Shown here: positions 30,449 through 34,220 of the stretch, in pieces
Layout of the letters: every line of letters begins with the position of its first letter
Numbering within the stretch: position 1 is the first letter of the stretch
Source: a virus
Direction: 5' to 3' (one strand)
Length of the DNA: 64,000 nt
IMG/VR virus record: IMGVR_UViG_3300046092_000205
Coordinates: 1 to 64,000 of that record
Translations under genes and position numbers: made by a program
Notes under the pieces: generated by a model
Told to the model about the DNA's origin: nothing
Database searches by the model: none
Seen by the model: only the letters and a program-made list of their open reading frames with translations

Positions 30449-32776
30449 ATGCAACAAACACCTAATTTAATCCGCCATATTGAAGAAGCCTCAAAAACTT
30501 CGCAAAAAAATAATCGCCCAAACAATGTTGTCGATTTATTTTCGCAACTTTTAAATGAGAGCAAATTTCAAAATTTGCTAACATCTTTTAAAATAAATCC
30601 CGAAGCTGTTAAAGATAGCTTATCTGAAAAATTACCAGATGTTTTCCCAGAGATTTTTGAAGGATGTGAGGAGGAATATAATACTGTCTTAAAAGAGGCT
30701 GAAGATTCGGCAAAAGAATTGGGTTATGGATATTTTGATACCGAACATCTTTTTCATGAGCTTCTAAATTCATCGCCCACCATTAAATCTTTTTTCGCCA
30801 TCCACGATATTTCCTTGGATGAAATTTTAGAAAAAACAGCAGACATGGTTTCTTTAAAAGATGAAGGCTTGAAAGAATTATCAAGAGAATTATCTGAGCC
30901 AGATTTCCCAACAATTGATAAGTTTTGCAAGAACCTATCAATTGATTATGGAACTGAATCTCAAAAAATCTATGGACGTTCCGAAGAAATTTCCAATATT
31001 TTAGATGTTCTTTGCCGACATAAAAAAGGAAATGCTATTCTAATTGGAGATCCAGGAGTTGGTAGAAAAAGCATTATTCGCGGCGTCATCGAAAAAATTA
31101 ATAGCGGCAAAAGCTCAGAGGTCTTGCGTGAAAAAACATTTTATGAGCTTGACATTACAGCAATTATTGCTGGAGCTTCAATGTTTGGCTCTATCGAAGG
31201 TCGTTTTAAAAACCTGACAAAGGAACTGGAGGATCACGGCAGCGCTGTTCTTGTTATTCCAGATTTCCAAGTAGTTTCTGGAAGTGGATTTAAAGATGGT
31301 CCAAGTGAAATTTCAAATTTCTTGAAGAGTATTTTAGCGCGGCCAAATATTTCTTGTCTCGCGACAATTACCCAAGTTGATTACAAGAAGCATATTGAGA
31401 AGGATCAATCTATGACTAATCTTTTTGAGGTTATCAAAGTTAAAGAGCCAACTAAAGAAGAAACGCGCCAAATCATTGTGAATTCAATCTACGAATTGGA
31501 AGATTGTCACTATGTTGAATTTCCAATGGAAACAGTTGATATGGTTTTGGATCTTTGCGAAAAGTATCTTCCCTATAGACGTTTCCCAGAAAAAGCATTT
31601 GATACACTTGACTTTCTTGGAGCTAGAACTAAGAATGAGCACTTTACTCATCCGCCAAAACTTCATGAAGAATGGCAATCTATCATGGATAAAATTGGCC
31701 CAAATATCCAACAAGACTCTCCAGAGTTTATCAAATTGAATCGACGCATGGAAAAATGGGCGAAAAAACTGAATAAGTGGATGGAATACACCGATAGAAA
31801 TATTCCATCAATTTCACCACAAAAGGCTATTTCAACATTTGCTGAAAAGTATAAAATTACCGAAAATCAACTCAAGCAACTTCAAACATCAACAATTGAT
31901 GGGCTTGCCGAAAAATTAAAAAGCGCAATCTTTGGCCAAGATCATGCTATTGATAAAGTATGCGATGTTCTGCTGTGCTCGAAAGTTGGTTTGAGAGATA
32001 AAAATAAACCACTAGGTAAATTCATGTTTGTTGGATCAACTTCGACTGGCAAGACCGAATTAAGTAAGCAGCTAGCAGTAAATTACTTTGGCGATGACAA
32101 GGCTTTATTAAAGTTGGATATGTCTGAATTTTCAGAAAAGTTTTCTAGCTCATCTCTAATTGGAACAACTGCTGGGTACGTGGGATATGAAAACGGTGGG
32201 CGTCTAACTGAATTCGTAAAGCATAACCCATCATGCGTTGTTCTGTTTGACGAAATTGAGAAGGCTGATAGGAGCGTTCACAATCTTCTACTTCAAATCA
32301 TGGACGATGGCTATCTTACTGATGGTCAAGGATTCAGGGTAGATTTTACAAACACAATCGTTATTCTCACAACAAATTCTGGTAGTGAACCACCAAAATC
32401 AATGGGCTTTAATATTGAGCCGTCAAATGATCATCATGAAAAAGCGGCCAAAAAAGATTTTGCCCCTGAATTTAGAGCGCGAGTCGATGAAATTGTTGTA
32501 TTCAAAGATATGGATGACAAAATGATGACGAGTATCCTTAGCAAATTCATTAACCAGTCACTGGAAAAACTAAAAGAATCTGGAGTTTCAGTTACTATTG
32601 AAGAATCTGTAAAAAATCTTTTGCTCAAAGAAGTTAAGTCCCAAGGCTCGCACTCGCGAGAAATCCAAACAACTGTGAGACGAAAATTAGATGTGCCACT
32701 TGCAAAGTTTATTATTAATAATAGACCCAAAACAATTTTTGTAAAATCTTGCGAAAACAAGATAGAAATATTGTAA
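30449..32776 (+). CDS. ClpA/C-like AAA+ ATPase
   Basis: TEHL N-domain, LPYRRFPEKAFD, IFGQDHAI, GSTSTGKTE, GYVGY, LFDEIEKA, MGF loop. Confidence 0.9.
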   Translation: MQQTPNLIRHIEEASKTSQKNNRPNNVVDLFSQLLNESKFQNLLTSFKINPEAVKDSLSEKLPDVFPEIFEGCEEEYNTVLKEAEDSAKELGYGYFDTEHLFHELLNSSPTIKSFFAIHDISLDEILEKTADMVSLKDEGLKELSRELSEPDFPTIDKFCKNLSIDYGTESQKIYGRSEEISNILDVLCRHKKGNAILIGDPGVGRKSIIRGVIEKINSGKSSEVLREKTFYELDITAIIAGASMFGSIEGRFKNLTKELEDHGSAVLVIPDFQVVSGSGFKDGPSEISNFLKSILARPNISCLATITQVDYKKHIEKDQSMTNLFEVIKVKEPTKEETRQIIVNSIYELEDCHYVEFPMETVDMVLDLCEKYLPYRRFPEKAFDTLDFLGARTKNEHFTHPPKLHEEWQSIMDKIGPNIQQDSPEFIKLNRRMEKWAKKLNKWMEYTDRNIPSISPQKAISTFAEKYKITENQLKQLQTSTIDGLAEKLKSAIFGQDHAIDKVCDVLLCSKVGLRDKNKPLGKFMFVGSTSTGKTELSKQLAVNYFGDDKALLKLDMSEFSEKFSSSSLIGTTAGYVGYENGGRLTEFVKHNPSCVVLFDEIEKADRSVHNLLLQIMDDGYLTDGQGFRVDFTNTIVILTTNSGSEPPKSMGFNIEPSNDHHEKAAKKDFAPEFRARVDEIVVFKDMDDKMMTSILSKFINQSLEKLKESGVSVTIEESVKNLLLKEVKSQGSHSREIQTTVRRKLDVPLAKFIINNRPKTIFVKSCENKIEIL

Positions 32777-32810
32777 TCTGTCGTTAATATACTGACAACA
32801 GTCAATACAT

Positions 32811-32993
32811 ATGAACAACATCGAAACAACCCTAAAGTCTACCCGTGGCCGCTTTTTTACACTCTCCACTAAGCAAGGAGAGAAGTTTAATGCTCAAGCT
32901 CGCGGAATGACAAAGTGCTACATTACAGTCTTTGATCGCAATAAGAATCGCTTGCGTAAGCTAGCCAAAACAAGTGTGATTGGCGTAAACTAA
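32811..32993 (+). CDS. 60-aa basic protein, possible Sm/Hfq-like fold
   Basis: Helix plus five-strand pattern alignable by eye to Hfq. Confidence 0.5.
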   Translation: MNNIETTLKSTRGRFFTLSTKQGEKFNAQARGMTKCYITVFDRNKNRLRKLAKTSVIGVN

Positions 32994-32994
32994 A

Positions 32995-33130
32995 TGTCGC
33001 GCGCACTTGATGGAAAGCTACCATCGAGAGCAACGCACAAACTTAAGGTACCGCACCAATTTGGGTCGCTCAGTTCAACCAAGACCCAGAACGGAAAATG
33101 TGATAAGTTGAACTATCACGGCCTTGAGCA
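32995..33130 (+). ncRNA. Candidate structured RNA: three-way junction with kissing loops
   Basis: Stems 33006-13/33021-28, 33042-48/33122-28, 33062-67/33083-88, 33100-05/33114-19; loops GTTCAAC and GTTGAAC are complementary. Confidence 0.55.
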
Positions 33131-33132
33131 TC

Positions 33133-33168
33133 AAATCCCAAATTACTGAAAAGTAGTTTGGGATTTTT
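33133..33168 (+). terminator. Intrinsic terminator
   Basis: 15-bp stem with one GU pair, GAAA loop, T-rich end. Confidence 0.8.
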
Positions 33169-33182
33169 CGTTTATTATAAAT

Positions 33183-34220
33183 ATGCGTCTAGAAAATATT
33201 CTCCGAGAAAAGATTTACGCTTTTTCAATGCACTCAGAAACTTCTGAAGCAGAAATCTTTCTCCTAAAAGAAATTGCCGCTAAAAATAAATTGGGTGAAT
33301 ATATTAGCTCATTAGTATTGGATAATAATGATAACTATGACTCTTATCGCTTGGATACGTCAGATGGTCATTTTTGCGTAAAATTATCTCTTGATCCTCA
33401 AGATTCCTCTATCAAAAAAGACTTTGAGACGCTTTCTCAATTATTGGATAAACATTTACCTTACGCTATTGCTCTGGGAGATTTAAAAGATTTTCACGCT
33501 CAATATTCCGTCTCTTCATTTGTTTATGGACAAAGTTGCGCTGAGTTAGGCAAATCTCACATCACATCTCTAAAGGATAAATTTTTAGAATTAATTAACG
33601 GTTTGGCTGAGAAAAAAATAAAAGCTCAATCATTTAAAGAATTCGTAGAGGAGAAATACCTATTTTCAGATATTACAAAAACGCCTCAATTCAAAGAAGT
33701 TGATTTTTCTAAGGATATGGAAGTTTTAGAAATCTGCACATCTGAACTTATTGCTACAAAAAAACTAATAAAAGAAGCCTATAATTCCTGCATGGAAGGT
33801 CAACAATTATGCCATGGAAACATTACTCCATCAAGACTATTAATTCGTGGCGACGAATTTTCTTTAATTAATTTTGATGATTCTTATATTGGGAATCCAT
33901 TAATTGATCTTTGTTCTCTAAAATATGAGTTTTTTATTCAAGATGGTATGGAGGCGGCAATTATTAATGATTTTCGCGCAAAAAATAATTTTGAGATGGC
34001 CGACTATAGAAAATGTGCGAATTTAGTTAAGATTATGAAGTTTCATGATTTAATTAACGACTTTATTAAGTATGTTTATATTTATAGGGGAGTAAAGCAT
34101 AGAAAAATTCTTGAACTAACTGAAAAAATGAGTAGATCATTTGGCTTATTCGGTGGGTTGCCACCGTTCGAAAGACACAAAGAAAAAATAGCTGAGCTAT
34201 TTACGTCAAGCGTAATTTAA
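33183..34220 (+). CDS. APH/choline-kinase-fold protein, probable pseudokinase
   Basis: FCVK, LCHGNITPSRLL, LINFDD, GNPLIDL. Confidence 0.7.
   Translation: MRLENILREKIYAFSMHSETSEAEIFLLKEIAAKNKLGEYISSLVLDNNDNYDSYRLDTSDGHFCVKLSLDPQDSSIKKDFETLSQLLDKHLPYAIALGDLKDFHAQYSVSSFVYGQSCAELGKSHITSLKDKFLELINGLAEKKIKAQSFKEFVEEKYLFSDITKTPQFKEVDFSKDMEVLEICTSELIATKKLIKEAYNSCMEGQQLCHGNITPSRLLIRGDEFSLINFDDSYIGNPLIDLCSLKYEFFIQDGMEAAIINDFRAKNNFEMADYRKCANLVKIMKFHDLINDFIKYVYIYRGVKHRKILELTEKMSRSFGLFGGLPPFERHKEKIAELFTSSVI

Follow-up and report, generated by a model that had tools for sequence, protein, structure and literature searches.

Analysis of a 64-kb stretch of DNA (the window, 64,000 nt in full) from the IMG/VR virus record IMGVR_UViG_3300046092_000205, a 76.5-kb record estimated to be ~55% complete, revealed an 87-nt three-way-junction RNA that follows the gene of a 60-aa basic mini-protein and precedes an intrinsic terminator. 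The source of the stretch is an uncultured freshwater phage. The RNA is a new structured-RNA family beside a new family of viral mini-proteins of predicted Sm fold. It is very probable that the RNA is real, conserved and under purifying selection that maintains both its structure and the precise junction-strand sequence, and that the mini-protein beside it belongs to the Sm-like folds, as predicted.

The three-way-junction RNA and its conservation

The mini-gene, the RNA and the structures on either side of it are arranged in the window as follows.

32811-32993, + strand: gene of the 60-aa basic mini-protein, predicted Sm-like fold, net charge ~+10
32995-33039, + strand: first hairpin after the stop codon, core 33006-13/33021-28, a lineage-specific spacer structure
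33042-33128, + strand: 87-nt three-way-junction RNA, defined by the five-member alignment, covariation and covariance model R1
33042-49/33121-28, + strand: helix P1, CTTAAGGT/GCCTTGAG, 8 bp
33050-59, + strand: junction strand J1/2
33060-67/33083-90, + strand: helix P2, containing TGGGTC/GACCCA, 8 bp
33073-33079, + strand: L2 segment GUUCAAC, 5' half of the 7-bp kissing (loop-loop) helix
33091-99, + strand: junction strand J2/3
33100-05/33114-19, + strand: helix P3, GTGATA/TATCAC, 6 bp
33107-33113, + strand: L3 segment GUUGAAC, 3' half of the kissing helix
33120, + strand: J3/1, a single nucleotide
33133-33171, + strand: intrinsic terminator with a 15-bp stem (33133-33166), a GAAA loop and a T run

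A preliminary description of this DNA, made from the sequence alone, had named these helices, and every one of them was present at the place given for it; the 15-bp terminator that it had put immediately 3' of the junction was found at 33133-33166 with the T run behind it. The L2 and L3 segments of the window are exactly complementary. The minimum-energy fold of 32990-33172 obtained with RNAfold consists of the hairpin, the three-way junction and the terminator (-63.6 kcal/mol, z = -6.1, none of 200 shuffles as good), and the junction alone gave z = -2.9, with 3 of 200 shuffles as good. Local GC content was 0.48, compared with ~0.33-0.38 in the flanks. The sequence of the first hairpin is not conserved in the other loci, where other hairpins or an extra open reading frame (ORF) are found, and the variants 33026 G>A and 33031 C>T of a near-identical contig leave its pairing intact. 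The terminator hairpin alone (33133-33168) recurs on metagenome contigs with unrelated flanks from three studies and may be a repeated terminator of the phage group or of its host.

Homologues of the 60-aa protein, together with independent DNA-pattern scans, yielded a set of five distinct RNA sequences, which comprises the window copy (kissing helix L2/L3 GUUCAAC/GUUGAAC) and the four copies below.

L003, 3310-3395: IMG/VR contig; kissing helix GUCUAAC/GUUAGGC
L140, 7851-7937: IMG/VR contig, found by DNA-pattern scan; kissing helix GUCUGAC/GUCAGAC
L121, 3369-3452: JGI freshwater contig; kissing helix GUCUAAC/GUUAGAC
L122, 3409-3492: JGI freshwater contig; kissing helix GUCUAAC/GUUAGAC

Covariation was assessed on the five-sequence alignment for P1 (8 bp), P2 (8 bp), P3 (6 bp) and the L2-L3 helix (7 bp). 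Standard pairs occupied 91.5% of the cells compared with 80.5 ± 2.2% in shuffles, and 14 of the 29 pairs had changed on both sides compared with 6.5 ± 1.8 in shuffles. For four of the five measures none of 500 shuffles reached the observed value, and for the remaining one, further pair types, 11 of 500 did so. When the 3' partners were slid by 1-3 columns, pairing fell to 25-43%. Pairs that changed on both sides were found in P1 (five), P2 (four), P3 (two) and the kissing helix (three); the last was 100% paired in all five sequences, with one more pair changing on one side. Compensatory changes were thus present in all four helices (n=5), and the pairing between complementary loops, which the preliminary description had proposed from the window, is conserved and covaries. 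Because the four further copies keep all four helices by compensatory changes, the structure goes beyond chance. G-U pairs are also frequent in the helices, and an invariant U-G closes P1; for this reason the + strand, which is the strand of the mini-gene, was identified as the RNA strand. In a near-identical contig from another study 33126 G>A turns a U-G pair of P1 into U-A; the sequencing runs listed for the phage included no RNA run, and DNA contigs from such runs added only one near-identical variant.

Invariance was highest outside the helices, at 22 of 29 unpaired columns compared with 23 of 58 paired columns. The invariant blocks are CCGCACCAA in J1/2 and ACGGAAAAUG in J2/3, and over the alignment the two strands read RCCGCACCAA and ACGGAAAAU, respectively. 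CC and GG inside these blocks may add two pairs under P2, for which invariance gives no covariation. These junction blocks do not differ even between phages with flanking proteins of only 48-50% identity.

These observations bear on two readings without a functional RNA. In the first, a GC-rich spacer folds by chance and its conservation reflects recent descent. All five sequences come from related phages, and at 66-75% identity the RNA does not exceed the flanking genes (62-82%). Changes, however, cluster in paired columns and compensate each other in all four helices, the unpaired junction stayed invariant while the flanking proteins diverged, and the slid-partner controls lose their pairing. 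We regard this neutral origin as very improbable. In the second reading the stretch is coding and its structure incidental, since in the window an ATG-started 51-codon ORF (32994-33149) extends over both hairpin and junction; the preliminary description had named conservation of this ORF as one observation that would speak against an RNA. The ORF was not conserved and was rejected as a gene. Stop codons interrupt its frame in L003 and L121, in L140 a stop is the first codon of the frame, and an indel of 1 nt in L2 throws the frame out of register; the stem substitutions are compensatory and the ORF has no Pfam match, so that the coding reading is almost certainly wrong and the RNA reading survives. 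Both the coding and the neutral readings are effectively excluded.

Covariance model R1 scored the five members at 89-102 bits, with one copy per record, and over ~0.9 Mb of related loci it gave nothing else convincing; weak matches in L136 and L328 (E 0.04-0.09) were taken as noise. Six DNA-pattern scans that ignored the protein, five of viral contigs and one of genome contigs, returned mostly chance matches, and a match in L285, which lies inside a gene, was rejected as one of these. Among the matches listed, L140 was the sole new member, the true RNA matches each stood beside a member of the mini-protein family, and the scan of bacterial and archaeal sequences showed no RNA member. Locus searches with profiles of the mini-protein and of the APH-fold protein encoded behind the terminator gave no further viral contigs.

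No Rfam family reached its gathering score in the whole window, and a search of 801 nt (32600-33400) at E up to 10 returned terminator look-alikes only. This agrees with the preliminary description, which had seen neither the purine-riboswitch nor the packaging-RNA (pRNA) consensus. No tRNA or transfer-messenger RNA was found with ARAGORN. The literature search found neither a phage Sm/Hfq protein with a partner RNA nor this motif; an unnamed entry is possible in a catalogue of >10,000 candidate viral structured RNAs (PMC10690425, 2023).

The 60-aa protein and its predicted fold

Close relatives of the mini-protein fall into 11 clusters at 76-98% identity, and the family as a whole comprises ~80 clusters at 50% identity, nearly all of 57-115 aa and mostly viral. 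Searches of Pfam (E up to 1), PHROG and NCBIfam gave no match for the 60-aa protein. An AlphaFold2 model based on a 17-sequence alignment (predicted local distance difference test, pLDDT, 91) placed a helix at residues 4-10 and strands at 15-20, 25-33, 37-42, 47-52 and 56-59, and this alpha-beta1-5 order is the Sm topology. Comparison of the model with the PDB by Foldseek ranked Hfq proteins first (M. jannaschii, Listeria, S. aureus and B. subtilis; template-modelling score 0.75-0.82, E 4e-3 to 2e-2), followed by Sm, Lsm and SmAP. The structural search VIA, whose noise level is stated as 7-8, gave values just above that level: Z 8.8 for Hfq 1kq1 (root-mean-square deviation 1.9 over 57 residues), Z 9.1 for the WYL domain of PafBC within a span of 7.8-9.1 for the WYL domains of PafBC, BrxR, CapW and DriD, and Z 9.7 for a designed small barrel. 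Modelling of the monomer thus returned an Sm-like structure with Hfq, Sm and WYL proteins as top matches, as the preliminary description had anticipated for the first of these, and an Sm-like small barrel is supported as the predicted fold.

The likeness to Hfq had been drawn from an alignment by eye. This alignment agrees with the predicted strand order and with the Sm topology of the model, but no Hfq or LSM match was obtained at the sequence level. One of 53 family members matched the Pfam Hfq model at E 0.035, which is not significant, the family profile compared with PDB sequences found no Hfq and reached Sm D3 only at E 1.4, and the Sm2 motif of the YKHAI type is absent from the protein. 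The Pfam Hfq family is absent from the phage record. Pfam WYL likewise had no match in the protein or in its family, and the protein stands alone without a helix-turn-helix (HTH) domain; WYL barrels are as a rule fused to HTH/WCX domains. The predicted fold is thus shared with Hfq and WYL domains, and for neither was a significant sequence match obtained. Prediction of a four-copy complex scored 0.01 (mark 0.42), which counts neither for nor against a ring. P0028 (191 aa) is a fusion with an unassigned 130-aa N-terminal part.

In common with Hfq and Sm proteins, the mini-protein is basic, has 60 aa and is predicted to fold into an N-terminal helix and five bent strands, and the RNA beside it ends in a terminator and U tail. 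Hfq binds 3' ends that carry a terminator and U tail. Unlike Hfq and Sm proteins, the phage family is almost wholly viral, and WYL domains and designed barrels score equally against it.

The mini-gene transcript and the possible roles of the RNA

The features that flank the mini-gene and the terminator in the window are given below, followed by the spacing of the RNA in four loci.

30449-32776, + strand: gene of a ClpB-like double AAA+ ATPase, 775 aa
32782-32791, + strand: conserved box CGTTAATATA, ~20 nt upstream of the mini-gene start, a possible promoter element
33170-33182, + strand: AT-rich box GTTTATTATAAAT, located 3' of the terminator and 5' of the next start codon, possibly a separate promoter
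33183-34220, + strand: APH/choline-kinase-fold gene, 345 aa, always the next large gene after the mini-gene

Window: mini-gene stop to RNA 48 nt; RNA to next ATG 54 nt
L003: mini-gene stop to RNA 117 nt; RNA to next ATG 125 nt
L121: mini-gene stop to RNA 301 nt; RNA to next ATG 43 nt
L140: mini-gene stop to RNA 26 nt; RNA to next ATG 43 nt

The order of mini-gene and APH-fold gene is kept across the whole family, including the distant loci L126-L131, whose APH-fold proteins are <20% identical. In the window, 189 nt without a conserved ORF separate the two genes. The distance from the stop codon to the RNA varies widely, and the RNA invariably comes last ahead of the terminator that precedes the APH-fold gene; it is also present in L140, whose mini-protein is 48% identical. 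The terminator begins 0-6 nt after the RNA in the window, L121 and L140 and ~90 nt after it in L003, and the L122 contig ends inside the terminator hairpin. No terminator was found in the interval between the mini-gene and the RNA. Mini-gene, RNA and terminator are one transcription unit. An inserted ORF of helical appearance (MNEE...AMQYAQAACNLS...), absent from the window, was observed at L121:3137-3292 and L122:3252-3413.

The box CGTTAATATA is invariant in the window, L002 and L003 and is also found upstream of the mini-gene in L121 and L122, with CGTTAATAA in L140. All members have a promoter-like box in the interval from the terminator to the APH-fold ATG. It reads GTTAATATAA(A/G) in L002, L003, L121 and L140, and the GTTTATTATAAAT box of the window resembles the box before the mini-gene; the box is not enriched in the window (33 matches with <=1 mismatch vs 27 expected). 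In L126-L128 the terminator is followed at once by a -10-like TATAAT. This placement of the boxes and of TATAAT points to a start of its own for the next gene and to a terminator that insulates the mini-gene unit; the terminator is therefore read as an insulator rather than as a gate. With an insulating terminator, we infer that the RNA is better seen as the 3' end of the mini-gene transcript than as a read-through switch.

Two further observations concern the start of the APH-fold gene. The box lies 4-7 nt from its ATG, and its mRNA may be leaderless. In L129-L131 (L129:3225-3290, L130:431-495, L131:3230-3290) a stem of 10-14 bp with a U run encloses both a TATAAT and the APH-fold start codon. 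The 3' arm of this stem lies in codons 9-13, and complementarity is kept although the stem sequences differ between loci (z -4.2 to -6.4); the arrangement resembles a terminator whose loop contains the promoter and start of the next gene.

We tentatively propose, as a possibility that we hold with some doubt, that the RNA is a stable 3'-terminal domain of the mini-gene transcript, bound as a ribonucleoprotein (RNP) by the co-transcribed Sm-fold protein. The comparison covers only five distinct sequences, and function is wholly inferred. RNA and terminator would together form the stable 3' end of the transcript, either kept on the mRNA or released as an RNA derived from its 3' untranslated region (3'-UTR). 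The invariant junction (CCGCACCAA, ACGGAAAAUG) would offer a specific binding surface, for which the Sm-fold protein made from the same transcript would be the likeliest partner, binding as Hfq binds structured RNAs that end in a terminator and U tail. The product would be a phage RNP acting on RNA or on transcription during infection. A more elaborate form, which we consider fairly unlikely, is a phage 'mini-snRNP' (small nuclear ribonucleoprotein) made of the phage's own Sm-type protein and a dedicated RNA, whose junction would recognise a host or phage target or whose L2-L3 loops would pair between molecules to build particles. Covariation cannot tell intramolecular from intermolecular loop pairing.

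Small RNAs of the Hfq-dependent, 3'-UTR-derived kind, such as CpxQ and SroC, are simple hairpins with a linear seed. The phage RNA is similar to them in that it occupies the last ~130 nt of an mRNA, ends at the terminator of this mRNA and contains, further upstream, unpaired nucleotides that are conserved; it differs in its junction and pseudoknot. Within the window, no complementarity to a target was conspicuous. The complement of invariant J1/2, TTGGTGCGG, matched both strands of the window 18 times at <=1 mismatch compared with 6.7 expected, a number reached by none of 100 shuffles; these matches showed no coherent target pattern, and the excess may come from codon bias. In the same target search CATTTTCCGT was not enriched in the window. 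An 'AAUUUGG' resembling an Sm site in the window was also rejected, being the P2 strand and not conserved.

Several results weigh against the proposal that RNA and protein act together. The RNA is limited to one subclade and was found in 5 of ~13 distinct loci that have a family member; it is absent from L124-L132, so that most family members have no RNA. L002 and L123, with a protein 87% identical, also lack it, ~250 nt being missing between conserved flanks. Because most members and these two loci do without the RNA, the protein does not need it. In L121 and L122 an ORF of 51-53 aa stands between the mini-gene and the RNA. All five copies come from related, syntenic phages, and the adjacency may reflect inherited synteny rather than functional coupling. 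The 60-aa protein has no Pfam sequence match to Hfq (PF17209) or LSM (PF01423), and in P0047 (265 aa) a sigma-70 region 2 (Pfam E 3e-7) is fused ahead of the Sm-fold domain, which hints at a role of this domain in transcription rather than in RNA chaperoning. In addition, the combination of covarying stems with an invariant junction characterises aptamers and ribozymes more than small RNAs bound by Hfq. The 'protein-plus-ncRNA (non-coding RNA) cassette' of the preliminary description was overstated in view of the number of loci that have the RNA and of the ORF interposed in L121 and L122.

In a different reading, which we judge rather unlikely, the RNA controls the adjacent terminator in cis, as a riboswitch-like aptamer or through put-like antitermination, and so governs read-through into the APH-fold and tail-fibre genes; it may then be the aptamer of a new, phage-only riboswitch or antitermination class. 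The anatomy is that of an aptamer, with a three-way junction, kissing P2 and P3 loops, an invariant junction and a weak, variable P1. The RNA keeps its place with respect to the terminator and the next gene while the distance to the stop codon varies, the 5' strand of P2 (AAUUUGGG in the window, AAUCUGGG in L140) can pair with the 5' arm of the terminator, and the APH-fold start region lies in strong RNA structure in distant relatives too. However, no antiterminator pairing is conserved in L003, L121 or L122, and the ~90 nt of other structure between RNA and terminator in L003 leave no classical overlapping expression platform there. The terminator is also found where the RNA is absent (L002, L126-L128), every member has the promoter-like box between terminator and ATG, no ligand can be proposed, and the downstream protein has lost the Asp of HGD in most members. 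The preliminary description had suggested a switch through an alternative pairing of GCTCAG with TTGAGC; this pairing is present in the window and absent in the other four copies of the alignment, and was rejected.

The nearest known architecture is that of the purine riboswitch (RF00167) and other tuning-fork aptamers, with which the phage RNA shares a length of ~70-90 nt, a three-way junction closed by P1, interacting P2 and P3 loops, conserved junction strands with covarying variable stems, and an intrinsic terminator directly behind. Unlike them it has no Rfam match and unrelated junction sequences, a full 7-bp Watson-Crick loop helix, an asymmetric L2 of 15 nt and a J3/1 of 1 nt; it stands after a gene and not in a 5' leader, and it has no conserved antiterminator or evident ligand-gene context. 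A common architecture of P2-P3 loop contacts does not imply membership, and no conserved, mutually exclusive pairing of aptamer and terminator, as expected of a riboswitch expression platform, was found in the five members. HK022 put and EAR-type RNAs are cis-acting RNAs of ~70-120 nt located between promoter and terminator that can act at a distance, and put consists of two stem-loops without loop-loop pairing. A folded RNA acting at a distance would suit the arrangement of L003, but there is no sequence or model match to these RNAs, and with a promoter-like box behind the terminator read-through is possibly unneeded.

An autonomous RNA that is independent of the protein, for example a self-cleaving ribozyme, a decoy or anti-defence RNA, or a pRNA-like oligomer formed through L2-L3, is also unlikely. 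Catalytic and ligand-binding RNAs are usually marked by covarying helices around an invariant junction, L2 and L3 complement each other and not themselves, so that head-to-tail dimers or rings are formally possible, and presence and absence among close relatives recall accessory elements. Against this, Rfam gave no ribozyme or pRNA match at E up to 10, no CUGAUGA hammerhead core was seen by inspection of the alignment, each record has one copy, the RNA is not near packaging genes and no promoter of its own is visible ahead of it. The interacting loops also belong to two closed stems that flank J2/3, unlike those of the type I hammerhead. The phi29 pRNA (RF00044) is likewise phage-encoded, with a three-way junction and two mutually complementary loops. 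In pRNA, the loops of separate molecules form 4-nt pairings, and the RNA acts at the portal of small podoviruses. The phage RNA differs in its 7-bp pairing, the lack of a match to the Rfam model, the large size of the phage and a context of ClpB-like ATPase, mini-gene, APH-fold and tail-fibre genes instead of packaging genes.

Neighbouring genes and significance

The window DNA is AT-rich and comes from freshwater metagenomes, and related contigs reach 156-164 kb, which indicates a large phage. The ORF list and family searches placed all genes around the RNA on the + strand. Neither blastn of the locus against the phage collection nor tblastn with a distant mini-protein, used to seek cultured relatives, gave a match.

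For the ClpB-like gene, the search for cultured relatives gave only relatives that are <34% identical. In L140 the ATPase (L140:4163-7603) has 1146 aa compared with 775 aa in the window, and the ~370 extra aa, inserted directly after the second P-loop (GxxSVGK), look like an intein with a homing-endonuclease domain. The APH-fold protein matched Pfam APH at E 1.3e-4, short of the cut-off; its model (pLDDT 85) had APH(4)-Ia and homoserine kinase as top structural matches. At residues 211-213 the window protein has HGN as its catalytic-loop motif; relatives have HGE, HGG or HGN, and L129 alone has HGD. The usual catalytic Asp is therefore not a conserved feature, and the protein is possibly a pseudokinase or an enzyme with a different chemistry. 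Downstream of the APH-fold gene lie the genes of a 114-aa protein resembling tail-fibre-assembly proteins and then of a 1188-aa fibre protein.

Structured RNAs that combine a covarying pseudoknot with an invariant junction have been a source of new riboswitch, ribozyme and RNP classes. The RNA presented here is absent from Rfam and so far occurs only in a rare lineage of large freshwater phages. If RNA and protein act together, the phage would encode an Sm protein with its own dedicated partner RNA; if they act apart, the RNA would be a compact 87-nt candidate for ligand binding or catalysis that is easily tested in vitro.

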